The position numbers and the translations under genes are program-made. A stretch of DNA of 63,329 bases, the filler included, from Folioceros fuciformis (lineage: Eukaryota): assembly GCA_049999805.1 (NCBI GenBank). It is 13 parts of 13 records of this genome, joined end to end, with 100 filler letters (N's around TTAATTAATTAA, not from the genome) between each part and the next. Parts side by side here need not be neighbours in the genome. Positions count along the whole stretch, not along the records: positions 53,541 to 57,967 come from JBNGIO010001800.1; 12 more parts are not named here. One strand, written 5' to 3'. Of the stretch, positions 14,347-61,998 are shown one piece after another (the stretch's first letter is position 1; every line of letters begins with the position of its first letter). The notes beneath the pieces were generated by a model. The model was not told the origin of the DNA, made no database searches, and worked only from the letters and a program-made list of their open reading frames with translations.

Positions 14347-14677
14347 NNNNNNNNNNNNNNNNNNNNNNNNNNNNNNNNNNNNNNNNNNNNTTAATTAATT
14401 AANNNNNNNNNNNNNNNNNNNNNNNNNNNNNNNNNNNNNNNNNNNNGAGTGAGTGTGTGCGTGTCAGTGTACATGTTTGTTGGAGAGAGGGAGAGGTTTG
14501 AGGAGCAATAAGTGCTCTGCGTGTTGGTGTGAGTAGCTTGGGGTTGTGCGATTGGCAAGATCTGTGTGGTGTGAAGGAGTGGAAGAGAGTGAGGCAGTAG
14601 AAGTAGAGGAGAAGAGTCGAGTCGAGCTGAGCTGAGCTGAGCGGGGCGGGGCGGGAGTGAAATTTTCGGGAGGCCGG

Positions 14678-17262: not shown

Positions 17263-17346
17263 ATGTATGTACAGTGCGTACATACAGATGTATGTACAGT
17301 GCGTACATACAGATGTATGTACAGTGCGTACATACAGATGTATGTA
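17263..17346. repeat. 25-bp tandem repeat, ~3.3 copies, internally palindromic
   Basis: Unit ATGTATGTACAGTGCGTACATACAG repeated perfectly. Confidence 0.95.
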
Positions 17347-21325: not shown

Positions 21326-21485
21326 ATGACACAACATGTCCTACAATGACACAACATGTCCTACAATGACACCAAATATGATACCACGACACAAGATGTC
21401 CTACAATGACACCAAATGTCGTGGTGGGTCTATCACAACACAAGATGTCCTACAATGACATCAGATGTCGTGGTGGATCTATCAC
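21326..21485. repeat. Degenerate minisatellite built from ACACAA(C/G)ATGTCCTACAATGAC units
   Basis: Four copies of ATGTCCTACAATGAC and two of ATGTCGTGGTGG.TCTATCAC. Confidence 0.85.
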
Positions 21486-23077
21486 TTTTTCCATGACAGC
21501 TACATGTATATCCAAAACCAAAGATTCTCATTTGGTGTTCCCTTGAGAATGACATTAAATGGGTTTTGAGGTTACTAGGTTTCACAATGACACGCATTAT
21601 GGATTTAGGGTTTAAGGTTGAGATTTTCTTCCATGCTACATCTTTCGACATCCTATCTATTAGACTATCATATTCCAGCCACAAGTTTACATTGTTAGAC
21701 TACCTCTCTTCACTTAGCCATACATGTGCATGTTCTTTTTTAGAGTTGTCTTCTCATCTTCTTTTTGAAGTGCACCATTTTAAGGAGATGAATGTACATT
21801 TTTTTTTGAATAACCTCTTTTCAACTCTTAGTATGCAATTTTTAATTTTTGGTGGCTCTTCCATCTTAGTGGACATAAACATAAATTTTAAATACTCAAA
21901 GTATAAATAAAATCATTATAGTCCTAAATAACCAAATATGTATGTATGTGTCTACGTGCACACTCCAACGTTAAAACCGTCTGTCTTAATATATAGGGCT
22001 CTACCATTAGTCGGGTTTACTCCATATCCTTGGTATTAGCACCCGACTTTTTCCTCCTTTCTTTTTTTTTTCTTTTCTCTTTTTCTGTTTTAGGATTCTC
22101 CTCAACGAGCCCTGCTTTGACCTTCAGCAATTTCCAGGGATGGTTGGGATTCCATAGCCTTCGCATCCCCATCTCCACTTGGCCCTGCCATGCGTGAGCA
22201 GGGATGGTTGGGATTCTACACCCATTCCATCTCCACTTGGTCCTCCATGACCACTTTTCGGGTCTGCAACTTGCACAATCAGACAATGAGAGGACCGTTT
22301 GGACAACCGGTGACACGGTGTCCATAGTGGGCACACTCTTGCATCATGCAGAAGGAGAGGAGAACTTGTTTGATTTGGAACAGGATTGATCTTTAAACTT
22401 CACCAATGCGACAATGAAGAACCGGAAACAAGAGCACGGGCATGGGCATCCACGCCCATGCCTTCCAGGTAGACAGAGCAAGACGGAAAGCGTCCGGACA
22501 CCTTGTTGGATCACTCTTCCTAACTCAGACAACATGAGGCCGCTGCATGTGCATCGTAAAGCGCAAGTCGTTCAACCACCTGCCTTTGGGGCAGCGCACC
22601 GGGAACGCTGGTGCTTATGAGTTCGCTACTCAACATCAACAACCATGTCATGGTTCTGCTGCAAGACAACACCCGAGGATCAATCTCCTTGTGAATGTCC
22701 TTGATGCACAAACCGCAAAACCAGCTCTTGCCTGACACAGGCAAAACTTACTTCGACAACATGTGACCTTAACCTAAAGCAAGCTCCATGGGCCTTGCGT
22801 TTCATTACACTCTATCAATCCAGACTTTCGGAAGCGTCATGCTTGCAAAGCCAGTGCCAGTCCCCAGCAGTTGGCTGGAACGCATCTGGAGCGCATGTAA
22901 TGCAGAGCCAGTCATAAATAGGTGGCGCCCACATCTTGCGCCAGTTTCAAAGCGTCCGAGTTACACGTCCTCGCTGAACCTTGCCCGTTTCTGCGTTGTA
23001 ATCGACAGGAGTAAGGATTAGTTTAAACGTACAGGCTAGATTGTCCATCAACTCACGTTGTAACAACGAAGTTCTCG

Positions 23078-29000: not shown

Positions 29001-29498
29001 CATTGCCTCCGCCTGCATGAAAACATCATCCTCTGCACTTAGCTCCGATTGTCGGACAGGTTTTGCCTCGGCTGGGAGATCACCATTCGGGCTTACAGCT
29101 AGTAAGTCAGGTTGAGACGACCGCATCCCAACAGTGGCCACGTCAACCCCGTCTCCAGCATGGTCATGCACTCCGGATGTTACCATAACAGGGTCATCTG
29201 AGCCTTCCACCGGAAACCCCAACTCTGCCATGAGTTCACCAGTCCCTTCCGTTGCATCCAGAGTGGGAGGGGAGCTCAATTCAGGTTCACTTTCCTGTGC
29301 CGCCAGGGTACACACTACATTCGCGGAACCCTCTCCATCCGCAGGCACGAGGGCCTTCACCTCCTCTACCTCAACAAAAACTTCGGCCGGACCATTTCCT
29401 GCACCATTCTCAACATTCACCAGGTTGCCACCAGCCACATCCTCCAGGCTCTGGCCCGAATCCTTCCCACTCTCCTCCTTACTGCCGTCCTCCAACAT
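23078..29498 (-). CDS. ASHH3: Histone-lysine (H3K36-type) N-methyltransferase, ASHH3/ASHR3 family: acidic N-terminus, PHD fingers, AWS-SET-postSET, C-terminal Tudor
   Basis: GT-AG exons: 29498-26079, 25974-25624, 25534-25387, 24982-24871, 24741-24642, 24515-24437, ~24337-24166, ~23972-23892, 23701-23474, 23392-23341, 23167-23078. Motifs: FCALCQEFGELLCCEKCKQAFHLAC, CLCGMLFTTCSSSCECG, GWGL..IEYVGEVI, MVIDATFKGNLSRFINHSCQPN, ITYDYQFIQFG..CQCGSTDCRG, VGRRVGVWWPLDQKFY..IRYDDGDAE. Confidence 0.9.
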
Positions 29499-30194
29499 CT
29501 CCCCCGATCCCAGCAACCCCGCCTGACAGACCGAGGCCGGCCACAACCTAAATAGCCCCCACTCACAGTGCCTCAAAACGTCGCACAGCTCCACCACCCA
29601 AGATGCGGACCCTCAACAGGCTCCCAAGCGTTTCTTGCTGAAGCTTTACCATATCCAAGGCCACGATTGACAGAGCCGTAAGATGCCATCCAGGACCAGG
29701 AAAAGAACTTACAGGCTGCAAACACAGTGCCACGCACCCTTTTAGCTCACCTCACTTGAGGCTCTCTCTCTGTACAAACTCACGGAACAACAGAGCAAGC
29801 AGCATGGCCACAAACATGTGATCAGTTTACCAACAATTCTCCCACGCCAATATAGTCACCCAAAAAACCCCGCTTATGGAAGCATAACAAACCCCACCAC
29901 GATTGAGGTAAAGAAACCATGAAACACAGACTGTACAAACCCCGGAAGCCCAACTCTTGAGCTCCTAACAAGAAACCGGCCAAACAGACCAACAAGGAGC
30001 CCACCAAAAATGACTTGCGCCAGCAGACCTTCTTGCCCCCTTACACATTTGTGCTGAAGGCTACAATTCAAGCCAAACATGGCAAAAGCCGTGTNNNNNN
30101 NNNNNNNNNNNNNNNNNNNNNNNNNNNNNNNNNNNNNNTTAATTAATTAANNNNNNNNNNNNNNNNNNNNNNNNNNNNNNNNNNNNNNNNNNNN

Positions 30195-30496
30195 GCACTC
30201 GAAGAATGAGGCGGCACCCTACTCTGCACCCAGGTCATTCCGAGTACGGCGGCGCCTGCCCTAAACCGAACACCGTTAACGTCCGGTTTAAGAGGGGGTG
30301 TTAGAAGCACACTTAGTACCCATAACCATGCTTAAGCATAAGTGTTAGGTAAACGCGGACGAAACGGAACGATCGTTAAGGGTGAAACGGTTAGGCACGC
30401 AAGCTGCTATTTCTGCTGGTTAGGCATGCAAGCCGCTATTTAAGCAGAAATACTTATAAGAAAACTTTGATCTTTATTATATTATTATAAACTACA
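30195..30496 (+). mobile_element. Copia-type PPT and short 3' LTR
   Basis: GGTTTAAGAGGGGG followed by TGTTAG (30299) ... CTACA (30496). Same PPT context as 4531-4548. Confidence 0.7.
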
Positions 30497-30529
30497 TGAA
30501 GAACTAATCCTAGAATCGCTATGCTCTCT

Positions 30530-31090
30530 AATTGCTATATTGTCAAAGGGCCTAAAGTGAGCCATCGCAAAGAGGACTTTCTCCAAAGGGATCTCCTTGC
30601 TTTGTGCCTTTCGCTAAATCAAGCATCAAAACCCCCTTCACCACCAGCCCATATGAATAGTAGAGAAGCGAAAATGACTTGTAGAGAAAACGAACAAAAT
30701 GAATAAAGCTTGCCATCTGCCCATTTGTGCTCAAAAGCTCATCAAAGATAGTTGCCCTAAATATTGTATTGAAAGCATTCTCTACATCCAAGCGTAGGGC
30801 AACCCAATCTGGGTGAGACTAAAGAACCATTGAAACCCCACATGCAACCGATTCGTAGCCTCTCAAAGTCACAATCTTGACTTAATGTGGACTAAGATGA
30901 GCCTGGAAGTGTTATGGGAGCTGAATGAGAATACTCCAATTGATGAGCTGCAAGAAAGCCTCTTCCTCAATGAGCAGATGCACCCCTAGAGTAGCCTCTC
31001 CATAGCTAGCAATCTACTAGAACCCAAAACCTTGTGAAACTTGAGGGGCAACTTCCCCTCTTCCAACTATAGTGGCTAGAAGAAAAAGCT
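30530..31090 (-). mobile_element. Decayed non-LTR retrotransposon reverse transcriptase (CRE/RLE-type)
   Basis: Translation LGSSRLLAM...HLSPH*..RGYESVACGV...HPDWVALRLDVENAFNTIFR...GTKQGDP contains the non-LTR RT motifs DxxNAFN and GxxQGDP. Confidence 0.75.
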
Positions 31091-31730
31091 CTAAAAAAAC
31101 AATAAAGGGATACTAAAAAAAAATAAAAGTCTCCAATGTGGTCATAGATTGCCCCTGACAAACCCTACAAAGAAATGTAAGGGCCAGCCCCAATATATTT
31201 ACCACCCAAATTAAATAAAAAAACAGTTTATGCAATAAAATTCAAGACTTCCTTTGAAATAGAGAATCTCATTGCTAGATATAGGATACATAAAGCTGTG
31301 ATGATCGTCTTAAATGCCTAAGCCATTGTCTTAAACAGAGGGTCTATTAGGCCCTCTGTTTGCTGGGACGTATGCTTAGTAAGCATACTTTGTAGTACGA
31401 CCGAGCAAAAAGCTCCTCTCAAGACTTGCCTTGGTAGGGTCAAGATGGACCTCGTCCATCTTAGCAAAATCTAACCGAGACCTAATGACACGATTAAACT
31501 CCTCTTCAAGGCTCTACTCATCTGCATAATGAAAACGTCAGATGCAAGAAGCCACCTCATAATGGCCCGAGACACACTCCTCCCCAAGCAACAAAAACAC
31601 CACTTAGGAAGAAAAGGGAACAGAAAAGCCAAAGCAGCCTCATCTTGGGGATTCAACACTATCCGTTCTTAAGGAAGTCAATAAGCCAAGACTCTAGAAA
31701 AGGAGTGTGAAGGTTACTCGTTCCTGTAGC

Positions 31731-31938
31731 CCTAGGGACTACCAAAGAAGAAGCTTGTTGAAGTTGGGCCTTTTATGTAGTTTAATTGAAGTCCTTATGC
31801 CTAGGGACTACCAAAGAAGAAGGTTGTTGAAGTTGGCCTTTTATGTAGTTTAATTGAAGTCGTTATGCCTAGGGACTACCAAAGAAGAAGCTTATTGAAG
31901 TTGGGCCTTTTATGTAGTTTAATTGAAGTCCTTATGCC
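31731..31938. repeat. ~69-bp tandem repeat, 3 copies
   Basis: CCTAGGGACTACCAAAGAAGAAGCTTGTTGAAGTTGGGCCTTTTATGTAGTTTAATTGAAGTCCTTATG three times with few mismatches. Confidence 0.95.
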
Positions 31939-32619
31939 TTAAACTTATATGATTTTCAACGTCTCGAGATGTGAATAGTATTCAACATTCAAGGCAAGGG
32001 GTGTCCTTAGTGGAAGTTGACGAAACAAGACCCATGCTTAAAAAGATTAGTAACAAAAGGACTCAAGAAAGAAGACTCCTTCGCTTGCTCCAAAACCAAC
32101 TCACTCTCGTCTCGCTCCTTAAACCTCATAACCATAAGATAATAAATCCTCAAAAATAGATTAAAAAAAGAAAGAACAAATTCCTAATAGTCTAAACCCA
32201 ACCACACTTGAGCTCAAAGCCCTTTCCAAATGGAGAACAAAGCAATAAAGGCCTCAGTCATGACACATCTTATGGCCCTTGCTCTACTCTTCTCGCCTAG
32301 CTCAATATAGACAATGTGTACCTTTACCAACCTGCATATGCATGGGAGTTGTGTACCTATACTTACTTATGTATATTGGAAGTTGAGTATTTTTACTCAC
32401 CTATGTGCATATACAAGTTGAGTACTTGTATCATACCTACATACGTCGGGGTCCTGTGTACCTTTACCTAATGATATACGTATGGTGAGCCAATACTGCC
32501 TTCCTCACATTGACACAAACACACATCCAAACGTTTGCTTGAAGACCCTCTCATGGAAACAATAAAGCACCTCCTGGAAACAATCGCGCATGATGGCAAA
32601 ACAAAGAAGGCCCATTCCT

Positions 32620-33620
32620 AAGCCCTACTTCCATGCTCCATCACCACTCAACACCCTACTATCACCCAACACTCTACGCTCCATCACCACGCCACCACCC
32701 AACCCTTTATCCTCCCTTAACATGCCACACCCAATGAACACTTTGGCACCATCCTACCACTGTCGTATTATCCATCACCACCCAACACCCTACCACCACC
32801 CAATGCTCCATGCTCCCTCCATCACCACACCATCATTGAACACCTTATGTTCCATTACTACCTCCCCACTTCACGTTTTCATGCCGCCCTATGCTCCACG
32901 CTCCCTCTATCACCACACCGTCATTGAATATCTTACGCTCTACACTCCATCACTACCACGCCCTTCACGCCCGACTACCGCCCTACACTCCACGCTCCCC
33001 CGCCATCACCACACCCACCATTAAATAGCTTACGCTCTACGCTCCGTCACTACCACCCCCTTAACGCCCTACTACNNNNNNNNNNNNNNNNNNNNNNNNN
33101 NNNNNNNNNNNNNNNNNNNTTAATTAATTAANNNNNNNNNNNNNNNNNNNNNNNNNNNNNNNNNNNNNNNNNNNNAACACCTGCACTCTTATCACCAACA
33201 CCTGCACTCTTATCACCAACACTACGCAATGCCCTACCATTGCCCAACATTCATCAGCAGCCTCATCAATTAACACCATACCACTGCCCTACACTCCATC
33301 ACGAGCACCAATAACACAACTTAATGCCATACCATTGCCCAACATTCATTAGCAGCCTCATCAAATTAACACCCTGCCCTACGCTCCATCACGAACACCA
33401 AGTTATGCCCCAACACAACTTACGAACACCAATTTATGCCCCAACACAACTTAATGCCATACCATTGCCCAATGCCCCAACACCACTTAATGCCATACCA
33501 TTGCCCAACTTTCCATCATTGCACCACTCTACCCATGCCTTGGCCTGCCCAACTTTCATCATTGCACCACTCTATCCATGCCTTGGCCCATGACATGCTT
33601 CACCACCACATCACACCATA
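32620..33620. repeat. C/A-rich degenerate minisatellites on both sides of a contig linker
   Basis: Recurring CTCCATCACCAC, ATGCCATACCATTGCCCAA and AACACCTGCACTCTTATCACC units. Confidence 0.75.
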
Positions 33621-34372
33621 TAGAGCTTTCATATTTAATGTTCACACATACCAACACTAGACTTTCTTGTATAGACAAGATGTCAATGTTATGAATAATA
33701 AATATCATAATATTATCAATTAAATATTTATATCAATTATATAATATTATTTTCTCAATATTCTACATATACATATATAATATATTATTTTATTTTAATG
33801 CTATTTTATTTAAAGGCCCTTCGAACCAATGCACATATGTCAATAAAATGTGAAAATGTGTGAGATCAAAACATGATAATTACATGCAATAAATTCATTA
33901 AAATAAATATTAAGATAAATAAACCAATCACAAAATTAATTCATGGCTTCCTTAATTCACAGCCTTTCTTCACTTGGACTACTCCACTTGAGGTAGAGAA
34001 GATTGATCCCATGAAATTGCAGTTGAAGTGAAATAAACTTCCCTCATGAAACTCCAGTTTAGGCACTACAGATACGTCAGGGTCTAATTCAAAAGATTTC
34101 CCCGAATGAAACTGAAGTCTTGGTGTTATAAGTTGCTCCAATGAAACTGCACTTGAGGTCTAAAAATATTGCTCTAGTCACAACTCAAACCTGGGCAGCT
34201 CCCATTTAACGTTGTGGAAGCAACAAAAATTAGAATGCAAATATGGGAAAGAGAAAACAACATGTTCATACTTCAGAAACGATAAGGAACAGGTCCCTTT
34301 CACGGGCACGCCTAGTGGTGTTCGTGCCGGTCGTGTCAAGGATAGCGTGCAAGCAATGGACTTCACCTTGAG

Positions 34373-35634
34373 CTACTTGCCCTGAACGGCTCTTACTCGG
34401 TTGTCTCTGGCAAACTCAGCAAAGCGTTCCAAGTCCGCTTTCAGGATACTTTCTACCAGCGGCGACAAGGCCTGCACAGACACAGAGGCAGCAGCAGATG
34501 TCATCGTTTCCTCACTTCACCTACTTCTTTACTGCATGGAGATGCTAGACGCGGCAGAGGCACAAACGTGTACCGAGATCAACCCTGCTAGTTGTTCAGG
34601 CACCTCGTAGGAGATGGTCAGCTGCAAACGTCAGCAACAAACTACGTGGATCAGAGGCGTGGACCATGGATGGTTGCATTCCCAGAGGAGCTTACACCAA
34701 CCTGGACAGCACATGCTGATGGCCCGCGGGGAAAGAAGCGCACGGCACCACTGCAATAAAGGCAGTTACCTCCTTCAGCACACGAGCGCTGGGAATCACA
34801 CACGGCGAGCACAAGGAAATGAGATACCGCAGGCACACCTATTTGGGAGGCCGTCAACGGAGCGCCAATGAATCTTCTGATGGTGAATCGGCTGCAATGC
34901 ACCCACGGCAGCACAGGTTCAGGACATCGCAGGCCGCTAGTGTAAAGGATCAGCAGGACGATATGCTACAACCTGCATGTTTCGTGCCAGCCATGAAAAT
35001 TCCACTTTCTGTCCCAAGCCTTCGTACTGGAGAGTCCATTTCGACAGCTCCGGTTTGTCTTTCAGCACCTGAGCAATCAACAGTGCCGGAATCAACACAC
35101 ATGTACAGGGGTGCCGCGTGCTTATAACTCAGCAGCTGCCCCGCATGTACATGCCTCCACGGACGTGATCCATGGCATCCATCGGTTCACCCCTTCCCTA
35201 TCCTCCCACAAAGCCCAGGCCTCCTGCAACGGCACTTGGGTCTCCACTTGGGCCCTGCGCCACCGCGTTCACAAATCATCCTCGAATCCCACATGCTGGC
35301 CGGGCATTAGGGTTAAGGAAAGGGAGCCATTGCCATGGCAGACGTACGAGGAATCAAGCCATGTGCCTGCGCTCCATCGGCTCCCGTTGCCGGCAATCCC
35401 CACCAAGCCTCTTCCACCCACAAGCGTCCTGCTTGGCAGGACCACGCTGCGCCTCTTGAGGGCAAGACCGGGCGTCTGCACGATACTTGAGGTCGCAGGA
35501 AGACTGTGGCAGCCTGCGCGGGGTGCACCAAGCAAAGTCGTGGACGAAGAATGGGTCAAGCAACCTGCACCTGCTATGGGTGTACAGAACCCAACGGTAC
35601 GGCTACAAGACACACTTGGGATGAAGACCTCCAT
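34373..35634 (-). CDS. Polyketide cyclase/dehydrase and lipid transport (SRPBCC/START-like) protein, probably plastid-targeted
   Basis: Seven exons: 35634-35348, 35254-35155, 35068-~34973, ~34891-34839, ~34749-34701, ~34621-34574, 34471-34373. Joined translation: ...WLDSSAQVETQVPLQEAWALWEDREGVNRWMPWITSVEVLKDKPELSKWTLQYEGLGQKVEFSWLARNMQPIHHQKIHWRSVDGLPNSGAVRFFPRGPSACAVQLTISYEVPEQLAGLISALSPLVESILKADLERFAEFA. The Ser/Thr/Arg-rich N-terminus resembles a transit peptide. Confidence 0.9.
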
Positions 35635-38395: not shown

Positions 38396-38565
38396 CCTGC
38401 AGACTGGGCAAGGCCGGGGACGCGGCCGGGCACCACGCACCAGGCCCGCACACACACACACACACNNNNNNNNNNNNNNNNNNNNNNNNNNNNNNNNNNN
38501 NNNNNNNNNTTAATTAATTAANNNNNNNNNNNNNNNNNNNNNNNNNNNNNNNNNNNNNNNNNNNN

Positions 38566-41500
38566 TCGACGAGGTCGCTGTAACTCAGCAGGGACGCCTG
38601 CACAGGACCGGCAGACGGATCAGCCCAATTTTCATGGGATACAGCTAGAAATTTCTGAACCGGAAATTGGAAGGTCAGGGGCTGTTGTGGATAATGATCA
38701 CCTACTCTGGCGCATCAACAATCTACAGGGTCAGTTGATCCAAATGTTTACCGTTCAGAATTCATGGGTGATAGAGAGACTTGATCAGATTAGTGAGCAC
38801 TTGGTTCAAATTAGTGAGCGCAGGAAATTTGAGCAGGTGGATTTTCCATTACCCATGTCGGTGGCATCACCAGCAATGGGATTGTATCTTCCCACCTTGT
38901 CTCCAATCCCTAGAAAACCGGACGCTCACAGTAGTTAGGGTTTCGTGTGAACAGTTGCTTCACATGACTGGGGCATTTTTCAGTTAGGGTTTCTGTGCAC
39001 ATACCTTTTCATGCTGACGTTTTGCATGAACTTTGTTGTTTCCTGTGCCTCTCCCTTCAATGCCCTGTCCCTTCATGTTGTAGATGCCTTTTCAGATCTG
39101 CACATTTAGATAACACAGTTAGTCAACCATGCATGGATGATTGGTTACTGGATGACTTAGCAGAATCATTTTATAACCTTTTTTTAGTGGACTGATCCCT
39201 GCTGCTCCAGCCCAGAACCAAGGTCGACCCGGCATGTCTAACATAAATCCTCCCCTTCCCCCTCCTCCACCTCCGCCCTCTCTTTCACTTCCTGGTCCTC
39301 CTGGCCCTTACAACCCTGTCTTCACATCTAAACTCAAAGAAAAAGTTAGGTTTAATGGTCAGAAGTACGAGGTGTGGAGAGTGCGGATGAAGTCGACATT
39401 GTTGGCTAGAGGAGTCTGGGGTATTATAGATGGCTCTATTCCTGAGCCACCTGCAACTGCCATTCAAGCAGATAAGGATAAGTGGGCTCATGCAAACAGC
39501 ATAGGTATAGCCCTTCTTGTTTCTGGCCTGACAGAGGATCTCATTCCTCCTATAGAATTTCTAACCAAGGCTAGTGAAATTTGGTCCCAGTTAGAGAGCC
39601 AGTACAAAGTCAGTAATGTCCTTACACTATGTGCATTACGCACAGAATTCTATGGACTTAAGATGCGAGAGGGTGACAAAGTTCTTGCTCACACCAGCAA
39701 ACTTAGACATCTTCGAGCACAACTTACTTCCCTTGGTACAGTGATGGATGAGGTGGACGTGATTGCTCAGTTGCTCACCAGCCTACCACCAAGTTACCAG
39801 ACTTTTGTATCTGCCCACAATGTCCCCATCCGACAGGCTATAGCTGCCGGTGCTGCTGGGAGACAAATTACTATTACCCTAGACGAGGTTATAGGTGCCC
39901 TCTTCCAGGAAGAGCAGAGCAGGCTCATGTCAGGGACTGGGAAAGCCAAAGCTGACAGAGTGCTTACTGCATTCCGTGGCAGAGGGGCACATAAGGATAA
40001 AACAAAGATACAGAATTCACAACAGGGAAATAGAAACGAAGGGCAACGCAATCACGCAGGTCCTTCAACAAAACGTCCTGGAAGCTGCAATTGGTGTGGC
40101 AAACCTGGTCATTGGGCCAATGAATGCAGGAAGAAGAAGGCCGGGGAGCCTCGCAAGACTCCTCATCCTTCTGCTAGTTCTGTTGTTCAAGATAGACCTG
40201 CAGATTCCAGCAAACCGGTGGTTAAAATTCTAACCATCTGCCTGTCCACTCTCACAGGTGATAAGGCAGCCTGGTATTTGGACTCTGGGGCTACTGCCCA
40301 TATATGTCGTGAGGAATCCCTCTTCACGACATTGACCCCCTCCTCTAGTGTAGACAGAGTCTACTTGGGAGATGAACGGAATAGCACTAGCCTACGAATT
40401 CTAGGACAGGGGTCCTGCACATTTAGGCTAAGTGATGGGTCTACGCTTGCTCTTCCAAACATCCTGCATGTTCCAAGCATGGCCAAGAATTTGCTGTCTC
40501 TCAGCAAACTTTTTCAGCTCAAGATTTTCCAGCTAACAGCTCACGAGCATTACTGCTGTTTCTCTCGGATAGACTCCCCTTCCATATGTGTCTTTAGGGC
40601 TTTTCATAGGGAAACACCATGACTTTCCCTATGAAAAGAAAGAACGACACTTTCCCCTTATTTCAAGACTGGTTGACCACAGTGCAGCGCCAAACAGGCT
40701 GTCTCCTTAAGATCTTCAGATCTGATAACGGGACAGAGTTTGTAAATCAGTCTTTCGAAGACCTCTTCACAGAACAGGGAATTGTACACCAGTTTATTGT
40801 TCCTTACACACAGCAACAAAATGGTGTTGCTGAACGTAAAAACCAAACACTAATGGGCATGACACGAGCAATGCTGCTTTGGTCTAGTCTCTCCTCACCT
40901 TATTGGGCAGAGGCTGTGGTTACCTCTACCTATATTTTAAACCGCTTACCAACCAGCTCTTTAGTCTCCAAGACACCTTTTGAGCTGCTTTGGCATCGTA
41001 AACCGAGCCTTCTCCATCTCCGAATTTTTGGCTCTAAGGCCTTTGCCTATATTCCTGCAGACAAGAGGCGTAAGTTAGACAACCGCTCCAAACGTCTCAT
41101 CTTCGTGGGCTACAGCGAGACAGTCAAAGCATATAAACTTATTGACCCTGTTTCTCGACAACCAGTACTTGCCAGAAGTGTTACCTTTTTGGAATCCCTT
41201 CAGGCTGCTCCTATTCGAGATGAAGCACTTGATCCTTTTGAGCAGCCTGAAGATTCAGAAGTCCTAGATTATGAGCTTCCCGGTGTCATTTCTCTGTACC
41301 CCATGGATGTGGACGGCGCGGCCCCTAATTCTGCTGCAGGTAATCCTGGACAGGTCCCTGCTCAGTCACCACAAAATCCAGGACCAGCTCCTGCCCAGCT
41401 TCACAACCCTGGCCAGATCCTTGCCCAACCACAACCAGTTGCTGCTGGTCCTCATTATGATCCTGATCATACAGAACAGGATCCTGAGCATGGTAACCCA

Positions 41501-43631
41501 GATTTTGATTTTTCTGCGGAAGATGGGGAAGATGACTTACCTCCTCCTCAGCTATCTGTAGATGTTGCCCCTGCTCCAGTTGACTCTGATGAGGCTGCTG
41601 GACCTTGACGTTCATCAAGGCATAATCCTCCACCTTCTGAATGGCAGGAACCCCCTTATGCAAGCATTGACTTCAGACGCCCTACTATTTCATCAGTTTC
41701 CTCCCCTCCTGAAGTCCCTCCAGAACCAGTATCTCTTACGGAGGCACTTACTGGACTAGATAAAGACAAGTGGAAATTCGCTGTTGATGACGAATATAAT
41801 AGCCTAATAAAAAATGGCACATGGCGTCTGGTTCCTAGGCCTGCAAACAGGAAAGCCATTACCTGCAAATGGGTCTTTAAACACAAGCTCAATGCAGAGG
41901 GGCATATTGCCCGATATAAAGCTAGGTTATGTGCACGAGGATTTACCCAAGTCGCTGGTTTGGATTACCAGGAGACGTTTTCTCCAGTTGTGCGTGCTCA
42001 AAGTATTCGCATCATCTTAGCCCTTGCTGCACAATATGACCTTGAATTACAGCAGATGGACGTCTGCACGGCCTTCCTCCATGGTCTTCTTGAAGAAGAA
42101 CTGTATATGGAGCAGCCAGAGGGGTATGTAGACCCCGCACATCCTGACCACGTCTGCCAGTTAATCAAATGCCTATATGGACTTAAACAAAGTGCAGAAC
42201 GATGGTATAAAAGATGTGATACTGCCCTGAAGTCTCTTGGCTTCACACAGTGCAAAGCTGATTCAAATGTTTATATGTTTCGAGACGGATCTGCCTATGT
42301 TCTTCTTGCACTCTACGTGGATGATGTCATCCTTGCAGCCAGTAACCCTGCCATCCTGTCACATGTGAAGACACTCTTAAGAAATACCTTTGACATGACG
42401 GATAGCGGGGACCTTCTCTTTTGTCTCGGGATTCAAGTCCTGAGGGTTAGATTAGAAGGGCTGCTCATCATTTATCAATATAAGTACATAGCAGAAATTC
42501 TACATCGCTTCAACATGGGCCAGGCCCATCCAGCCACTACTCCTGGTGCTGTAGGCACAAAACTTACCAGACATGAGTCTCCTGTGACAGATGCTGATCA
42601 ACAGGACATGGCTGATGTGCCTTATCGCCAGGCTGTTGGTAGCTTAATTTTCGTCAGTAATTGGACCCGGCCTGATGTTCAACACTCTGTTAGCACAGTT
42701 TCTCAGTTCCTGGATAATCCAGGACGTGCCCACTGGACAGCAGTAAAACGGGTTTTCCGCTATCTTAAGGGCACACATTATCTTGGCTTGTGTTATAAAC
42801 GTACTGACCAGCCTCACCTTGTGCTTGATGGGTACACGGATGCAGACTGGGCCTCGGATAGTGACTCCCGGAAGAGTCTTTCTACATATGTTTTCCTCTT
42901 GGCACAGGTTGCTATCACCTGGAGCTGTAAAAAACAGACAAGTATTGCCCTGTCAAGTACGGAAGCAGAATATAAGTCCTTGACGGATGCTACAAAAGAG
43001 GTGGAATGGGCACGATCGTTCTTACACGACCTTGGGCAGACTCAAACAGATCCTACTTACCTCTGCTGCGATAATCAATCTGCCATTGCTCTCGTCGCCA
43101 ACCCACGCTTCCATGCTCGAACAAAACACATCGAAGTTCACCACCATTACGTCAGAGATGCTGCTGAGAGGGGCCTGGTTAAAATTCTCTATGTTCCTAC
43201 TGAAGACAATACAGCAGACATTCTGACCAAGGCTTTATCCAAAGATAAGCATCAAAAAAATCTTCAGGGCCTTGGATTGATGAACTTCCAGCGTTATTTC
43301 AAAGCACCAATATAACATGCTGCAGGTTAGGACTCACGGGGTGAGGCCCTGAATCCTCAATCCCCTTACGGGGTCACTCTTATCTTCCTGCAAGTCGAGT
43401 GACAGGGAGGGTTAGCCACAGTCTGTAAAAATCCACACACAGCAGCGAGCTCCAGCAGCACGTGGATGAAGCTCCACGATATTCTAATCACCTGCACGCT
43501 GGTTAGCCGCCGCCTCCTCTGCTTGCAACCGCTTGAACAAGGCCAACAGCCTCTGTGCTTCTTCCAATGGCCTCAGCAAGCTGTTGAATTCATCTTCAGT
43601 TTTCGCCCGACAGCTCCTCTTGCTTCCCGGG
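38566..43631 (+). mobile_element. Near-complete Ty1/copia internal region (5' UTR, gag-PR-IN-RT-RH, extra 3' region)
   Basis: ORFs 39234..40622 (gag, CNWCGKPGHWANEC, WYLDSGAT), 40619..41608 (SDNGTEF, QQNGVAERKN) and a continuous frame 41609..43315 (RT YVDD, RNase H). Confidence 0.96.
39234..43315 (+). pseudogene. Copia gag-pol polyprotein with an integrase N-terminal deletion and one nonsense codon
   Basis: Frame jump at about 40615, where the WHxRLGH/CxxC/first-Asp region is missing. TGA at 41606-41608, and the frame stays open from there to 43315. Confidence 0.9.
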
Positions 43632-44142
43632 TGCGAACCTCCAAAGTTTGGGGTAGTAGTTTGTTTTGGTTGAAAAAGGGTTAATAGTGGTATGGTTTGG
43701 TTTTCTTTTTCAATTTATTTTCCCTAATTTTTCTTGATTTTCTGGTCATTTTTACTATTTTTCTTTGTGCTAATTGGATTAATTGACCAAGAAATAGTGG
43801 GTTTGGTTATAAGAGTGGGTATAGGTTTGGTCCCAGAGCTGGGAAGGTTTAGGTTCGGTACCAGGCCATAGGGTTGGGTGATTAGTTTAATATTAGTTAA
43901 AGATATATAATATTAAATAATTAAATAATTAAATAATAATATTAAATAATTAAATAATAATATTAAATAATAAAAATAATATAATAATGGTTTGAACATA
44001 GGAAGGGGTATCTAGGTGTGTCAGTGTCAGGGGTCAGGGTCTGACGATAGGCTAGCTGATTGCTTGGCTGGCATGAACGGCTGTGGAGGCCATGCCCTAG
44101 CTAGAGCTAGAGGCAGGGGTTGCAGCCGCCCCCATGCCTTTT
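43632..44142 (+). repeat. High-copy LTR (copy 2) inserted in the copia 3' region
   Basis: Starts TGCGAACCTCCAAAGTTTGGGG. Matches 63183-63329 and the reverse complement of 2980-3454. Confidence 0.85.
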
Positions 44143-44292
44143 NNNNNNNNNNNNNNNNNNNNNNNNNNNNNNNNNNNNNNNNNNNNTTAATTAATTAANN
44201 NNNNNNNNNNNNNNNNNNNNNNNNNNNNNNNNNNNNNNNNNNTCTCGACCCACCGTATACCAGTGGCAGGAGAGGTGGTCACGTGGCCCCTG

Positions 44293-47200: not shown

Positions 47201-49117
47201 TACATGTACTGTCTCATGACATGATGAAATGCAACCTATCGTGTTGCCATGATAAAAAACAACGTGAACAACCCCAAACAACCTATCCACACAAGAAAAG
47301 GTGAGGACACACTCGCACAGGACTCCATGGCAGGACACATTGAGATAGACAGCCAGTCAATCGTGAAGGCAGAATGGAGCAGCAAGCATGAGAGCCAGAC
47401 CTTGCGTACTTTCCCTTCATCAAGAAACTTTCGACGCTGCGATTGGCCTGGCCCAGCTGAATGTCGTGGACTATCTGTTGTGATGTGTTGTGTTGGATTA
47501 TTTGGCAACCCTTGTAAATTTCGAGCTGGAGCTGGAGGTACCCCCAGGGACATCTGCATTGGTGTGCGATCCATCAGCCCAGTGTGATACATACGGAGCT
47601 AACACATCAACTGCTTCAAGAAATCACCTTCAACAGAAAGAATCGGCATCCACGTCTGTCAGGCGGAGAAGAAAAGGCAGATTGTACCTGAGAAAGGCCT
47701 GGAGAGGGGGTGCTGAACGATGAAGGAGTGGTCAAAAAGTGGGAACTGGCAGGCGCTAGTGAAGCATGCCCTCCACCACCAATCCCATCATGCCCGTGCA
47801 AGGGGCCTTGGAACTTGCCCTGTTTTGGACTCCCATTGTTTGTAAATGGTGACCGAGGAGAATACACTCCAAATGGAACATCAAGATGATCAACACTCAT
47901 GCCCGCCGGAGCTGAAACCGGTGTTTGACGGTCCCGGTCCCAATGTCTGTGATGTTGTTGCTGCTGCTGCTGGAGCTGTTGCAAGCGCAAAACTGCAGCA
48001 TCTCCATAAAGGCTAGCAGCTTCTTGCTCAGCACCTAGTGAAAAACAAAATTAAATTAGAAATCCGGAAAACTATTCTCCATGCTTCCTTTCCCCAGTCC
48101 CGTTGACTTCTGGGCTGGAAGCGTAGCCAGCTGGATGTGCTTAGCGCAAGGTGAAAACCCAAGTGGCAGACGCACAAACATAACTTAGAATCCATTTGGA
48201 TGCAGTTGCAGAAACACGAGACAAGGAAACAAAAGGATGACATTAAGATCATTATGCCTCGCTTGAGACCTTAACGCAAGCAAATATATTTGCATACCTA
48301 GCATGCATAAGTCCTCGTAAGCACACCAGAAAAAAGGGTCCAGTGACAGAGCTTGGCTGTAATACTCAATCGCAGCATCCTTCCGATCAGTCAACCTGAA
48401 AAAGTTTGCCACAACAGCAACCAAGCGCACAGGGATGCACAGAGTCAAATCCTCCGGATCCATTTATCACATGAGCAACACATGAAATGCCCACAGAACA
48501 CCACCTGCAAATGAGCCCGAGCATGTACTTGCCAGCTGCGCCATTCGGCACCTGAGGGTAGCAGCACCGGTACACAAAAGGTCAGCCCCGTCGGGAACCC
48601 ATGGAAGTAGCCAAACAAGCAACAGCCTTCAGGAACTGAGAGAAAGTGGCACAACCTCTGCTCCGGGATCATGAGGTGATGAGAGAGCAGCTTCGGCCTC
48701 CGGTAGAAAATCCATTTCGAAGCACGCCAGCGAGAAGAGGTAACGACATTGCTCAGACTTGGTACCTGCCCGCAGCAGCGCAACGAAAATTTTCAAATTA
48801 CGGTCAGGGAGGAAGCAAATTTGGAAACCGAAGGGCAGCTCAAACCGCGCGAGCTGCTACCTTTCAGCACGTGGTATGCCCGGTACGCCTGGTTGCTCCG
48901 GAAATAACAGGTTGCCAGAAGATGCAGATTGTTCTGCGCACAACCGCAGCAGCACGTTCAGAATCCAACAAGGATCACATTGCGAGCGGGAAACAAGACT
49001 GAGATGCATCACCTCGGACGGGAACTCTGCGCATAATCTCTCGCACAAGAAGGTGGCATTGGAGTACATGTACAAGCGCAGGGATGAGCAGATACTCTCA
49101 ACCATGCACGCTTCCAT
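44293..49117 (-). CDS. CDC27: Cell division cycle protein 27 homolog / APC3 (TPR subunit of the anaphase-promoting complex), multi-exon
   Basis: MEACMVESICSSLRLYMYSNATFLCERLCAEFPSE, NLHLLATCYF, VPNGAAG, ALSLDPFFWCAYEDLCMLG, RRKFLDEGKVRK, LLRTLGEGFRHLCMYRCQ, TGWVLCQVG, FSLQKDHEAALKFFQRA..FTYAHTLCGHE, DPKNPLPKYQKANVL, AIEKL. GT-AG borders seen. Confidence 0.95.
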
Positions 49118-49738: not shown

Positions 49739-49838
49739 NNNNNNNNNNNNNNNNNNNNNNNNNNNNNNNNNNNNNNNNNNNNTTAATTAATTAANNNNNN
49801 NNNNNNNNNNNNNNNNNNNNNNNNNNNNNNNNNNNNNN

Positions 49839-53440: not shown

Positions 53441-53540
53441 NNNNNNNNNNNNNNNNNNNNNNNNNNNNNNNNNNNNNNNNNNNNTTAATTAATTAANNNN
53501 NNNNNNNNNNNNNNNNNNNNNNNNNNNNNNNNNNNNNNNN

Positions 53541-53914
53541 TCTGTCTGTCTCGACGAATACGCATGCCAAGAATATGGCTTGCCTCTCCCAAGTCTATCA
53601 TGTCAAAGCGAGCATTCAACTTTGACTTCAACGCTGAAATCTCATCACTGCTAGTCCCAATAATTAGCATATCATCCACAAAGAGGACCAGAATGAGCAA
53701 GCTTCCATCCTTAGCTTGCTTCGTATAGAGGCAATGATCCTCCTTGCTACGTTTGTAGCCTTGAGAAAGCATACATGAGTGGAACTTGTAATACCACTCC
53801 TTGGGTGCCTGCTTCAAACCATAAAGGCTCTTCTTTAAGCTGCACACCAGATTCTCTTTGCCCTTCTCAATGAAACCCTCTAGTTGCTACATGTATACCT
53901 CTTCCTGGAGATCA
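53541..53914 (-). mobile_element. Ty1/copia (Tnt1-like) RT fragment, host of a nested insertion
   Basis: DLQEEVYM*Q.EGF..VCSLKKSLYGLKQAPKEWY..LFVDDMLI..DLGEASHILGMRIRRDR. Confidence 0.92.
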
Positions 53915-56900
53915 TGACAAATTCGAATAATACATTTGTTTATTATTTGAATTGTATTGTTTGTAAAATAATCATTTTATTGTTTGATATATATATCTAT
54001 ATATGTTCCATCTATGGTCATCCATAATAACAAGTGTGTCTCAGCTTAAATACAATAACCTAGACTAGAAAATGAAAAGACGCACCTATTGACTTAACCC
54101 AGCGAGTTAGGGTTTATCCAAAACGCTCTCACACTCCCTCTTAAACCACCACGAGCGGGGAACTACGCATGAGGGATCTGCCATTACTCCCCAGCTACTC
54201 TACTGGAGTGGGAATGATCAGCGCGTTCTCTTCGTGAAGGCGATGACAGCACAACACGAATTTCCACTATAAATGTCACTCACCATGGAGATGCGCAATG
54301 AGGACGTGCATTTCGATACATATTGGAATGACGACAAGCAACGGGGAACTTCAGGAGAGCCACGAGGATCGTCCCAACAGGAAGCGGACCAAGATAGGAG
54401 AGGCATCTGCAGAGACACATCTCGTGGCGCGGCGATCACCACTAGTTGACATGAAGGAGGCTTTGCGAAACTACAAGGTGAGATGGGGTGCTATCTCTGA
54501 GATTTTGTGGCACCTGTTTGTAGACGAAGGAGACTCCGTTTCTTCTGATTGCACCGAACCCATTCCGAAAGATGATAACCTTGATCTGAGCGAGGGAGAG
54601 GAGGAGAAGGTGAGCAACTGGTTGGCGCTCCAGCATCTGCACCAATCTGTCATCACTAATAAAGCTCTGACCAGAACCATTCAGCAGCAGGTGATTTGAT
54701 TGTTCGCTTATGCTTCATCCACCTGTTGTTGAAAAATCTGCCGTCATTGTAACTCTAACATAGGCTACTAACACAAATAAACTTCTGTCATAGGAAACTG
54801 GCCATACGAGGTCCTCTGCTGAAGTTCCTATGACCAAGAAGACTGAGAAGGGGGAAACTTCATCAGGAATAAAGTGTGCTTCCTCATGCTCTTAAATTGA
54901 CAAACTGTAGAGAGATCATTGTGAATCAGAACCAGCTGCCAAGAATCAAGGAAGGGGGACTACATATTTTGAGAATAATTATAGAAGTTTATTAGTCCTA
55001 AGCCCTCCATATGTTGATAGTGCTTAGTTTTTGATAGATCTTTAGTTAGGATGTCGGCAGTATTTTCATCGGTAGGAACATATCCTATTGTTGCTGTTCC
55101 CCTTTCAACCACATCTATGATGTAGTGGTGCTGAATTTCAATATGTTTAGTTCTAGCATGAAATTTGGGATGGGCAACCAAATCAAGGGCGGACATATTA
55201 TCACATAATAATGAAGTGGGCTCATCCTGTATTTGTCCCAAGTCTGCAAGGAAGGTTCGTTCCCATTCCAGTTCCTTTGAGGCTTCAGTTAAGCTCTTGT
55301 ATTCTGCTTTAGTCGATGATAAGGCAACTGAAGCTTTTTTCTTGTTGCTCCAGTTGATAGCTGCTGATGAAAGCATGAAGCAATAAGCGAAAAGGCTCCG
55401 TCTTGAGTCACTATCCGATGCCCAATCAACATCAGTAAAGCCTGTAAGGGTAAGTTTATTCGTCCCTGTTGATTTGTATGCTAGACCATAAAATTCTGTC
55501 CCTTTCAGGTACCTAAACACTCTCTTAGTTGCTACCCAATGTGTACGACCTGGATTTTCCAAGAATTGAAATAATGTACTAATTACATATTGTATATCAG
55601 GATGTGTCCAGTTCGCAATAAACAAGAGGCTTCCAACAGCCTGTTGATAGGGGACTGCAACCATTTCTTTAATCTCCTCATGCCCTTGGGGGCATTGAAA
55701 GCTGGTAAGTTTGACCCCAAGGGATATTGGTGTGGCTGCTAGACATGCTTTTTCTAGCTAAAAACGTGTCAGCATTTCTTGTATGTATTGATACTGCTGT
55801 ATGATCAATAACCCTTCAGCTCTAACTCTTAGTAGCTGAATGCCTAGACAGAATCTCAATTCACCTGTATCCTTCATTTCAAACTTGTTACTAAGCATCT
55901 CCTTTGTATCAACAGAGACTGGTCATTTGTTGCAAGGATCACATCATCGACAAATATAGCCAAGATCACATATCCTGGGCCTTTGGTGAGTTTGTAAACA
56001 TTTCCGTCAACAGTACTTTGAACAAAGGAGTTATTCAATAAATGTTCATGGATGTTAAGGTACCAAACTCTCCCACTCTAATTTAGCCCGTACATAGTTT
56101 TCAATAGCTTCAGAACTTTATTTGGATACTTAGGGTCTATATAACCTTCTAGTTGGATCATATACAGGTCTTCATTCAGGGAGCCATAAAGATAAGCTGT
56201 ACAAACATCCATTTGCTGTAAGTCAAGATCGAATTCAGCAGCAAGTGCGAATATCATCCTTATTGACAGTGCCCTTACAATAGGAGACAATGTCTCTTGG
56301 TAGTTAGGACCCTCAACTTGAGTAAATCCTCATGCCACAAGTCTTGCTTTGTATCTTGCTATTTCTCCTTTGGCATTCAATTTCAGTTTGAATACCCATT
56401 TACAAGATATGGGTTTTCTTTCTTTTGGTAAATCAACAAGGGTCCATGTGTTGTTTTTGACAAGGGAATTGTATTCATCATCAACAGCAAATTTCCAATT
56501 ATCTTTTGTGGGTCCTGAATAAGCTTCTGTAAGTGTCTTGGGTTCAAGGTGAATTGTACTAGATGCTGAGTTGCATATCTCAGCATATGATGTTCTGAAG
56601 TTCACTGACTCATATCTTGGCTCCCTCCACTGTTATGGAGGGTTTCTCTGTCGAGTATATCGTCTTAAAGGAGGATCAATGTCAGGGACAACTTGTGCAT
56701 TCTGTGGTAAGTCTTGTGTCTCGTTTTCCAAGGGTATCACCTCTCCCTCTAAATCTAGAACATATGGATGATTTGCAAATTGTTCCTAGTGTTCTGCTGC
56801 AGGTGGGCTTTGTGCAGCTTGGACATCATGATCTTGTTGGTGCTCCTGAGTATTCTTTGGAGGTGCTATAGTAGGAATATATTCATCGTCAATAGTGTCT

Positions 56901-57967
56901 TCAGATGGATAAACTGCATCAACAGGGTCAGCAGCGGAAGTAAGGGGAGGTAAATCTCCCGAGGGTGTGATATTCGTTAAATGATCTGAGAGGATTGGCT
57001 CTGTAATTTCCAGGAAAGTAACAGATCGTGCTAACACCACTTTCTGATTTGTAGAGTCATATAACTTGTACGCTTTGGATTGCTCGCTGTAACCCAGAAA
57101 AACAAGGCTTGGGCTCGAGGATCCAATTTCCTGCGTTTCTCCCCTGGAACAAGAGCAAAAGCCTTGGAACCAAAAACTCTAAGGTGTAACAGACTAGGCT
57201 TACGGTGCCACAATGCTTCGTATGGTGTCTTGAAGGTAAGAGAACTAGTAATCAGTCTGTTCAATATGTAGGTCGCAGAAACTATGGCTTCTGCCCAAAA
57301 AGTTTGTGGTAAACCTGCCCATAATAGCATGCTTCTCGTCATGGACTGGAGAGTTTGATTCTTTCGTTCAGCAACTCCGTTTTGTTGTGGAGTGTACGGA
57401 ACAGTGAGCTGACGTTCGATTCCTTTTTCCTCTAGGAAAGAATCGAAGGCATGGTTCACAAATTCGGAGCCAATATCAGTGGGAAGACATTTCAATTGCT
57501 TGCCTATTTGGCATTCAATCATATGGAGCCATTCCTGAAAAATGGTAAAAGTGTCACTTTTCAGGTGAATTGGGTATGTCCATGTATATCTGGAGAAATC
57601 ATCTCTGAGGCAGAGGTAATATATTGCTCCCCTTAATAAAGCAACTTGTATTTTTCCAGAAATGTCAGCATGGACTAATTCCAGGATTTCTATAGCACGA
57701 TGAGATGTTGTCTGAGGAAATGGCAGTTCCTTCTGCTTGGCCACAATACAAGCCTCACAGGGAGGTAGCTCCTTGAATACTTGAGGTAGACTTTCTTCAT
57801 GGCAATCCTCCAAAGACATGTCAAGTAACTTACGTTTGTTGACGTGCCCTAATCTTGCATGCCATAGGATAGCAAGTTTCATTGATGGTTTTGTAACAGC
57901 GGATACACTGTGCTGAACAACATAAATATCCAGCTTATACAAACCATGTTCTATCACACCTCTGAAC
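53915..57967 (-). mobile_element. Ty1/copia element (IN-RT-RH, extra 3' region, PPT, 3' LTR), degenerate
   Basis: ORFs 57031..57957 (LWHARLGH, DDFSRYTW, QQNGVAERKN), 56330..56605, 56078..56290 and 54960..55664. Minus-strand PPT AAGAGGGAG at ~54135-54143. LTR 54134-53915 (TGTGA...TGTCA). Confidence 0.95.
54298..54895 (+). CDS. Putative spliced antisense accessory ORF of the copia element
   Basis: 133-codon ORF (RPNRKRTK, acidic patch) ending at CAG|GTGATT. Intron 54691-54793 joins it in frame to a 33-aa exon ending TAA at 54893-54895. Confidence 0.4.
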
Positions 57968-58067
57968 NNNNNNNNNNNNNNNNNNNNNNNNNNNNNNNNN
58001 NNNNNNNNNNNTTAATTAATTAANNNNNNNNNNNNNNNNNNNNNNNNNNNNNNNNNNNNNNNNNNNN

Positions 58068-61453: not shown

Positions 61454-61998
61454 NNNNNNNNNNNNNNNNNNNNNNNNNNNNNNNNNNNNNNNNNNNNTTA
61501 ATTAATTAANNNNNNNNNNNNNNNNNNNNNNNNNNNNNNNNNNNNNNNNNNNNTAATTACTTAAATGTAATTGATTTACACCTTCTTATTAATTTTGTCA
61601 ACAATCCCTCACAATCTCTCATGGGTTTCCATAGGCTTCCACAGCCACTCACAAACACGTAAAAATCTTGCAGCAAGTCTCTAGATTTTGCATCCAATCT
61701 TCAGCATTCTTCCTCCATTCTCCAGCAATCTTCTCAATCGTTTTCTCTTCAGGTCTTCAACAACGTTCCAGCTCTTCCACCAATGTTTCAGCAACTCCAG
61801 CAACCTCTCACAGTCCTTCACAAATGTATAGGGACTCCTAAGAAATTCCCCAGCAATCTCGTCCAAACCTCAGCAAACAATCACCCAGCAATTTCTCAAT
61901 GATTTCTTAGCAAATCTCCTCTAGCAATCTTCCACGGTTCTCTTCAGTCTTCCAGCTCTCTCTCCTCACCAAATACAGCACGCACCTGATGGTTCAGT

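Follow-up and report, generated by a model that had tools for sequence, protein, structure and literature searches.

A candidate intron-containing antisense gene between pol and the polypurine tract of a low-copy Ty1/copia element in Folioceros fuciformis

Can a Ty1/copia retrotransposon carry a gene of its own on the strand opposite to pol? This question is raised by a 4427-base contig (positions 53541-57967, JBNGIO010001800.1) of the window studied here, that is, of the whole stretch of 63329 bases of Folioceros fuciformis DNA, in which 13 separate contigs are joined by filler spacers, so that copia 3' ends on different pieces are not genomic neighbours. The contig holds a degenerate copia element, and between the stop codon of its pol gene and the polypurine tract (PPT) in front of the putative 3' long terminal repeat (LTR) lies a spacer in which a first-pass annotation had proposed a spliced accessory gene running antisense to pol. 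We read this spacer, with a probability of about 0.45, as the residence of a gene-like antisense unit of a low-copy Ty1/copia family, whatever the origin of that unit. The length of the open reading frame (ORF), its codon-position asymmetry, a set of donor, branch and acceptor signals and a TATA motif are, taken jointly, unlikely to have come together by chance in this one copy.

The frame in question, on the plus strand, is open over 150 codons (54247-54696), 133 of them from the ATG at 54298 (ORF 54298-54696), and lies between the PPT (54134-54142) and the pol stop (54960-54962), antisense to pol. It encodes the basic RPNRKRTK and the acidic DDNLDLSEGEEEK, and removal of 54691-54793 (103 nt) adds 33 codons in frame before a TAA stop at 54893-54895, for a product of 164 amino acids. 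The ORF, both charged patches, the 103-nt GT-AG intron and the 33-codon in-frame extension had all been described by the first-pass annotation, and every one of them was recovered at its position. Using dinucleotide shuffles as the null model (of region 54135-54960 for the length of the spacer ORF), we found that a frame of at least 150 codons arose in 41 of 1000 shuffles, which is marginal; as a rough external control, we looked at 21 distinct, distant copia loci from metagenomes, two of which show an ORF of at least 150 codons within 1200 nt after pol. The codon-position chi-square was 17.6 against a null mean of 7.3, a value reached by 21 of 1000 shuffle-derived ORFs of at least 130 codons; it falls inside the range of the copia coding windows found in the window (12.6-27.0) and below that of host exons (32.9-71.5). 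By codon position, the GC content of the ORF is 0.54/0.39/0.59.

The putative intron begins with the donor CAG/GTGATT (slashes mark splice sites) and ends with the acceptor TGTCATAG/G, a TACTAAC at 54766 would supply the branch A, 22 nt ahead of the intron's final base, and at 0.37 the intron is poorer in GC than exon 1 (0.51) and exon 2 (0.46). That a frame can be extended in this way is no evidence by itself: some in-frame GT-AG extension was possible in 1663 of 2072 shuffles and for 82 of the 100 real window ORFs of at least 100 codons; what sets this frame apart is solely how good its splice signals are. We scored them by a strict test (AG/GTR within the final 30 nt of the frame, a YAG acceptor preceded by CTRAY at a distance of 12-45 nt, and a gain of at least 30 codons), which singled out 20 of the 2072 shuffles and 3 of the 100 real ORFs, the spacer ORF among them. 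Of the other two, one is a 1186-codon ORF with a PHD finger at its end; the second adjoins a weak TPR match that stays below Pfam's cut-offs, has itself no Pfam match, and is probably a host exon as judged from its coding-like statistics alone. When the length limit was lowered to at least 60 codons, 7 of 373 window ORFs were selected, about 4 of them likely false; of the four additional ones, two are surely false, being located within pol genes in antisense orientation.

Upstream of the ORF, the TATAAAT at 54268-54274 is the only promoter-like motif. It lies 135 nt inside the PPT and is internal rather than in the LTR, which speaks against the antisense promoter in or near the 3' LTR that had been suggested at first. 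The more general TATAWAW, 15-80 nt before the first ATG, occurs in just 1 of 84 window ORFs of at least 100 codons, namely the spacer ORF. At the other end, an AATAAA at 54868 stands 20 nt before the stop. Combining the values for length, asymmetry, intron and TATA motif (0.041, 0.021, ~0.01 and ~0.012) by Fisher's method gives ~1e-4 on the assumption of independence. The intron and TATA tests were designed only after the motifs had been seen, and the region was picked out of 63 kb; given such post hoc tests and such a choice, an honest combined figure is perhaps 1 to 2 orders of magnitude weaker.

How firmly is the spacer tied to the element? With the window's intact copia polyprotein (39177-43312) as query, tblastn placed the integrase at 57585-57008 and the reverse transcriptase (RT) and RNase H at 56662-54975, all on the minus strand, at identities of 55-61% for RT/RNase H and of 45-61% for two integrase segments, and pol stops at 54960-54962 on the same strand. 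Pfam recognised RVT_2 in three ORF pieces at 55874-56632 (minus; E 3.8e-11, 4.1e-19 and 3.5e-06) and rve together with SH3_retrovirus at 57097-57585 (minus). Judging from the RT type (RVT_2) and the domain order integrase, RT, RNase H, the element belongs to Ty1/copia. With 4 stops in frame and 2 or more frame changes in its pol alignments, this copy is a dead element. The contig end at 57967 is still inside the element, the 5' LTR and primer binding site (PBS) lying beyond it, and an LTR pair was found on none of the 13 contigs. The borders of the PPT and LTR are therefore motif-based, with the exception of the outer border at 53914/53915: contigs of three sequencing runs, X1 and X2 (DNA, from one sample) and X3 (of uncertain kind), diverge from the sequence behind 53914 as loose ends and so fix this border independently of motifs. 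The PPT, AAGAGGGAG, is the sole run of at least 9 purines followed by TG within 1435 nt after pol, and another copia in the window is followed by a comparable AAGAGGGGG plus TG at 4535. The GC content of the candidate LTR is 0.29 (computed on 53915-54131). Across the two DNA runs, summed contig depth is 16000-35000 in 53541-53984 versus 45-85 further on. The copia family to which the RT fragment at 53541-53914 belongs is an extremely abundant repeat; unique contigs have a depth of ~9-11.

The extra sequence between pol stop and PPT that had been noticed in this copy thus proved to be an 817-nt spacer internal to the element. Among the contigs of the sequencing runs, by which other copies were judged, those at least 80% alike span the whole spacer in both DNA runs. 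Two of them bridge the pol stop into the spacer, one from X1 (record 1, 54219-55031; 129 differences, 6 gaps) and one from X2 (record 9, 54548-55022; 69 differences, 4 gaps), although both runs come from one sample, so that the bridging contigs may represent a single locus. They are 84-85% identical to the copy described here, a divergence similar to that of the pol contigs of the element family (82-88%), and since they bridge the pol stop, at least one diverged copy also has the spacer within the element. In exon 2, well-supported variants of other copies occur at 54802, 54812, 54819 and 54847; none creates a stop, and by our reading two are synonymous and two non-synonymous. Within the window, the spacer showed no similarity to any other piece by blastn or tblastx, beyond a 45-nt blastn match (E 0.22).

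Given this anatomy, how might such a unit work? The spacer would carry a small, family-specific (orphan) transcription unit opposite to pol, started from the internal TATA box at 54268 and consisting of an exon 1 of ~121-131 codons (depending on whether ATG 54298 or 54328 is used), the intron at 54691-54793 and a 33-codon exon 2 with AATAAA beside its stop. The intron would be antisense to the genomic RNA of the element and would read CT..AC there; because of this, it could escape removal before reverse transcription and pass to new copies. The predicted 164-residue product would have a KRTK-type basic cluster near its N-terminus and an acidic stretch. By analogy with the additional ORFs (aORFs) of the Ty3/gypsy Tat/Retand elements, it would most likely act as a small nuclear protein, or the unit as an antisense RNA, modulating the expression or copy number of the element. 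Transcription, splicing, translation, nuclear location and function of the unit are thus what we infer from such analogies, and the proposed mechanism (promoter, shielded intron, action of the product) draws on the anatomy and on the Ty3/gypsy cases. If genuine, the survival of an antisense intron through retrotransposition would be a clean marker of independent transcription of the unit.

Table 1 Features of the contig under study and filler spacers of the window (positions along the whole window)
Feature	Position	Strand	Basis or remarks
copia RT fragment of another, very abundant element, host of the insertion	53541-53914	-	Pfam RVT_2, E 1.5e-26
Putative 3' LTR, 219 bp, TG...CA	53915-54133	-	sequence; loose ends at outer border
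Polypurine tract AAGAGGGAG, then TG	54134-54142	-	purine-run search
pol-to-PPT spacer, 817 nt	54143-54959		between pol stop and PPT; GC higher than in pol and LTR
TATAAAT, candidate antisense core promoter	54268-54274	+	motif, 30 nt upstream of ATG 54298
Putative exon 1, 131 codons	54298-54690	+	ORF, basic RPNRKRTK, acidic patch, second in-frame ATG at 54328
Putative intron, 103 nt, GT-AG	54691-54793	+	splice-signal consensus
Putative exon 2, 33 codons and TAA	54794-54895	+	in-frame continuation; AATAAA at 54868-54873
Degenerate copia pol, order integrase-RT-RNase H	54960-57585	-	tblastn, Pfam
Filler spacers N44-TTAATTAATTAA-N44 (12 in all)	2484-2583, 5459-5558, 12730-12829, 14347-14446, 30095-30194, 33076-33175		
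Filler spacers N44-TTAATTAATTAA-N44, continued	38466-38565, 44143-44242, 49739-49838, 53441-53540, 57968-58067, 61454-61553		

Several results weigh against the existence of an antisense gene in this spacer. Codon-usage log-odds were not significant, being reached by 0.29, 0.06 and 0.085 of null ORFs with three training sets, although this test has low power, its training sets being small and the element's own pol scoring no better; likewise, the difference GC1-GC2 was reached by 0.065 of null ORFs and the G content at position 1 by 0.146 of them. Upstream of the ATG at 54298 there are three ATGs in a different frame (54273, 54285 and 54291), so that translation would need a transcription start after them, which the position of the TATA motif allows, or else use of the ATG at 54328. 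Since the copy is dead, its open frame may be mere survival, for which the density of lesions in pol gives a rough chance of 0.2-0.3. Among 21 distant copia loci we saw no antisense trend, the antisense ORF being the longer one in 9. Searches with the ORF returned no Pfam match at E up to 0.1, no homologue of near its length, no match in the PDB, none in an atlas search and none in a scan of metagenome contigs; among 1.84 billion representatives there were two matches, both translated tandem-repeat artefacts, and recognition by a language model was low (1250). Structure prediction, one of the checks proposed for consensus proteins, was run on this ORF as a single sequence, and AlphaFold2 gave a mean pLDDT (predicted local distance difference test) of 37, that is, no confident fold, which for a single sequence is weak evidence. 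Other copies add to these doubts. Gaps in the bridging contigs (6 in record 1, 4 in record 9) obscure the ORF frame of the 84-85% copies. In a contig from another copy, 54642-54778 and 54863-54951 are absent, and in each DNA run a contig passes directly from 54173 to 55040, skipping 54174-55039, which means that in this related copy the whole spacer and the last 27 pol codons were lost or replaced while the PPT side was kept. Because of these omissions of parts of the ORF or of the whole spacer, the ORF is not kept in every copy.

No spliced joint 54690/54794 was seen in the contigs of the runs examined, and a run guessed to be RNA (X5) has no cover on the spacer. A 258-nt contig of X3, a small run of 4 million letters, is identical to 54662-54919; it contains the putative intron unspliced and extends to 24 nt beyond the ORF stop. 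As this contig may stem from DNA or from sense RNA of the element, it decides nothing. A metagenome scan with the element's RNase H yielded 60 copia loci, all at no more than 52% identity and hence too distant for a test of conservation, and the spacer was matched in none of them by tblastn or blastn; a viral contig scan with the RNase H gave no match.

What else might explain these features? One alternative regards the spacer as a non-coding 3' untranslated region, where an open frame, a GT-AG pair and a TATA-like heptamer would have met by coincidence and caught the eye in 63 kb of sequence. We consider this quite possible, though less probable than a gene-like unit. Each signal is modest when taken alone (length 41/1000, asymmetry 21/1000), codon usage is not significant, the GT-AG extension is available to 1663 of 2072 shuffles, an ORF of at least 150 codons is present in 2 of 21 copia loci, and the intron and TATA tests are post hoc; the missing homologue and fold, the low language-model recognition and the upstream out-of-frame ATGs are also what coincidence would leave behind. 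It would nevertheless have to bring four textbook signals into the right order and spacing within 650 nt, to let the ORF share with a PHD-finger exon and a probable host exon a test that selects nothing else among 100 ORFs, and to supply a TATAWAW found in 1 of 84 ORFs, with a Fisher value of ~1e-4 before allowing for the choice of region. Should chance be the answer after all, the lesson is that an in-frame GT-AG extension is open to ~80% of long ORFs and is not to be counted as evidence.

If the signals are real, they may still have been acquired from elsewhere. The spacer is richer in GC (exon 1 0.51, 5' flank 0.52) than the LTR (0.29) and the surroundings of pol (0.40-0.43 in the window around it), and the GC content at third codon positions (GC3) of the ORF, 0.59, is unlike that of pol (0.34) and nearer to that of host ORFs (0.46 and 0.72); base composition above that of pol suggests an origin outside the element. 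LTR retrotransposons are known to transduce genes, as in the case of Bs1 (cited in PMC7264820), and an ancestor of the family might have taken up a host gene or fragment, intron included, at the DNA level and carried it along without a role. Yet the ORF has no homologue in any protein collection searched, and therefore does not stem from a conserved host gene; no contig was seen with the ORF outside the element, among the minority of loose ends listed; and diverged copies likewise have the spacer linked to pol, whereas a transduced fragment is usually confined to one copy or a few (PMC7264820). The same linkage implies that any acquisition predates the separation of the diverged copies. We accordingly regard a captured passenger without a role as distinctly improbable, while foreign origin as such would be compatible with the resident antisense unit that we favour.

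A real promoter and a real intron could, finally, serve a non-coding antisense RNA in which the reading frame is irrelevant. Antisense promoters or non-coding antisense RNAs are described for micropia, Mdoryco1-1 and AtRE1 (excerpt of PMC7264820), and self-encoded factors of copy-number control, antisense ORFs included, are mentioned in the accessible text of PMC11624286, which cites Matsuda and Garfinkel 2009. The evidence for a protein, in recognition, codon usage and fold, is weak in the present case. The copy-number control that Matsuda and Garfinkel treat is reportedly that of yeast Ty1. Such an RNA would, by contrast, leave both the codon-position asymmetry and the in-frame continuation across the intron unexplained, and we think it very improbable. 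What stands of the proposed accessory gene is, then, the set of gene-like signals in this copy, to which neither a homologue nor a confident fold could be added.

The closest published parallels, cited here from excerpts of the respective papers, come from the other superfamily. Grande, RIRE2, Retand and pvRetro13, and in fungi Boty, carry aORFs on the antisense strand between pol and the 3' LTR; these lack clear similarity to database entries, and gene23 of Grande is driven by a promoter of its own and yields a nuclear product (PMC7264820). The orphan status of the ORF described here fits these reports (PMC7264820). The function of the Ty3/gypsy Tat/Retand antisense ORFs is described as still unknown in the excerpts (PMC7264820, PMC11963269). 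In bean, pvRetro13 and 14 other families with an antisense ORF2 are all Ty3/gypsy, and the extra ORF of two copia families is sense (PMC4093653); Retand regions between POL and the 3' LTR measure 2.9-6.6 kb, and most of their antisense ORFs, which were collected with a cut-off of 600 bp, encode TRP28 (PMC11963269). The spacer ORF thus resembles the Tat/Retand aORFs (the aORF-3R or eORF-3'R class: maize Grande gene23, rice RIRE2, Silene Retand, bean pvRetro13) in position, antisense orientation and orphan status (PMC7264820, PMC4093653, PMC11963269). It differs in that those elements are Ty3/gypsy with ORFs mostly above 600 bp, many of them with TRP28 (PF04195), whereas here a Ty1/copia element has a 0.8 kb spacer with 133-164 codons and no Pfam match; TRP28 in particular was not found in the ORF by Pfam at E up to 0.1. 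An intron is proposed here, while the word 'intron' does not occur in the aORF texts (PMC7264820, PMC11963269). The spacer ORF may act like the aORF-3R class without descending from it. An ORF of that class is expected in all or most copies of its family, at a level of conservation near that of the pol proteins; here, contigs covering the spacer are 84-85% alike and those of pol 82-88%, while one contig lacks parts of the ORF and another the whole spacer.

Among copia elements, extra ORFs of at least 250 codons were reported in 582 elements, of which the available text singles out only the sense ORF of SIRE (PMC6317226). The env-like ORF of SIRE (eORF-3'F) likewise lies between pol and the 3' LTR of a Ty1/copia element (PMC6317226, PMC4093653), but it is sense and several hundred codons long, and the candidate here is antisense. 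A SIRE-type env-like ORF was ruled out, the longest sense-strand frame in 54144-54959 having only 90 codons. Bs1 of maize likewise contains GC-richer, foreign-looking sequence inside an element; such transduced fragments resemble host genes and occur in one or a few copies (PMC7264820, in part), whereas the present ORF has no host homologue and its spacer is shared with a diverged copy. Retroviruses offer another comparison. HBZ, the antisense gene of human T-cell leukaemia virus (HTLV) type 1, has a spliced form. HBZ and APH-2 of HTLV-2 are, like the present unit, antisense to gag-pol near the 3' end, and the HTLV product is nuclear (PMC11963269, PMC7264820, in part); the antisense promoter of HTLV is inside the 3' LTR according to the excerpt of PMC7264820, whereas the sole TATA motif here is internal.

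A full-text literature search of one library found no description of an antisense ORF in a copia element, although the supplements of PMC6317226 may list reverse-strand ORFs. If real, the unit would bring the antisense aORF arrangement of Ty3/gypsy to the other superfamily, much smaller and with an intron, and a compact spliced antisense gene in copia would show that the arrangement arises in both superfamilies. A gene of this size would fall below published cut-offs (250 codons in PMC6317226; 600 bp in PMC11963269), and its ~0.65 kb would make it a small, tractable case for the function of such genes.

Do other copia elements share this arrangement? The first-pass annotation had taken every copia 3' end of the window to look coding on the strand opposite to pol and had seen in them a lineage with a common antisense gene. 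By tblastn, pol ends at 1713, 3707, 7795, 43312 and 54975, and the longest post-pol ORF is indeed antisense in 4 of these 5 regions; only at 7796-9100 does it clearly exceed the shuffles (0/1000), with a marginal 61/1000 at 1714-2483 and a non-significant 356/1000 at 3708-4600, while at 43313-44142 the longest ORF is on the sense strand and again not significant (173/1000). In the region ~6150-6817, also listed as a copia 3' end, no ORF reaches 100 codons, and the contig carries no pol ahead of it; the region was dropped. The five post-pol regions showed no DNA or translated similarity to one another by blastn and tblastx (best tblastx E 0.17). As they lie on unrelated contigs among the 13, are dissimilar, and look coding in antisense in only 2 of 5 cases, a shared antisense gene of one lineage fails; at most two unrelated copia copies have unrelated coding-like antisense exons.

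The second of these is the exon at 8292-8786 (minus), with 165 codons from its ATG and a chi-square of 45.2 (null mean 7.8) that none of 600 null ORFs attained; the 92 codons upstream of the ATG look random (chi-square 7.9). It encodes a basic stretch, GRPRG, which looks like an AT-hook core, and an acidic stretch, and its stop overlaps a perfect AG/GTGAGT donor. This exon, too, is an orphan, protein searches having returned no homologue; AlphaFold2 gave a mean pLDDT of 48 for 8292-8936 as a single sequence. As for a second exon, there are many in-frame GT-AG combinations, none of them outstanding. The exon at 8292-8786 is preceded by a pol fragment truncated at the 5' end; it may be an element gene or, equally, exon 1 of a host gene whose intron contains remnants of copia. 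That copia families have repeatedly and independently gained orphan, intron-containing antisense genes in the pol-PPT spacer (54298-54895; 8292-8786), with internal promoters, retained introns and small nuclear proteins that are basic or AT-hook-like and acidic, seems to us rather unlikely; if they had, copia would possess an equivalent of the Tat/Retand aORFs and of the antisense genes of retroviruses.

Beside this exon, an LTR-like stretch at 9059-9432 starts with TG, contains TATAAATA at about 9311 and is preceded by a purine run (9045-9057). It is followed by a PBS-like sequence, presumably resembling the primer site for initiator tRNA-Met, and then by gag from about 10000. The stretch may be one LTR shared by two elements, or a 5' LTR beside unrelated sequence.

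The window also contains host genes, of which one with a PHD finger and one with an F-box point to a plant genome. The PHD finger mentioned above ends a 1186-codon exon of a host gene at 26055-29612 (minus), cut by a consensus donor. Exons at 47619-48463 (minus) have weak TPR matches, below Pfam's cut-offs, and by eye we take them to resemble an APC/C subunit of the Cdc27 type. A further host gene at 14636-16195 (plus) encodes an F-box protein with a beta-propeller of the KIB1-4 type, a plant-specific family.

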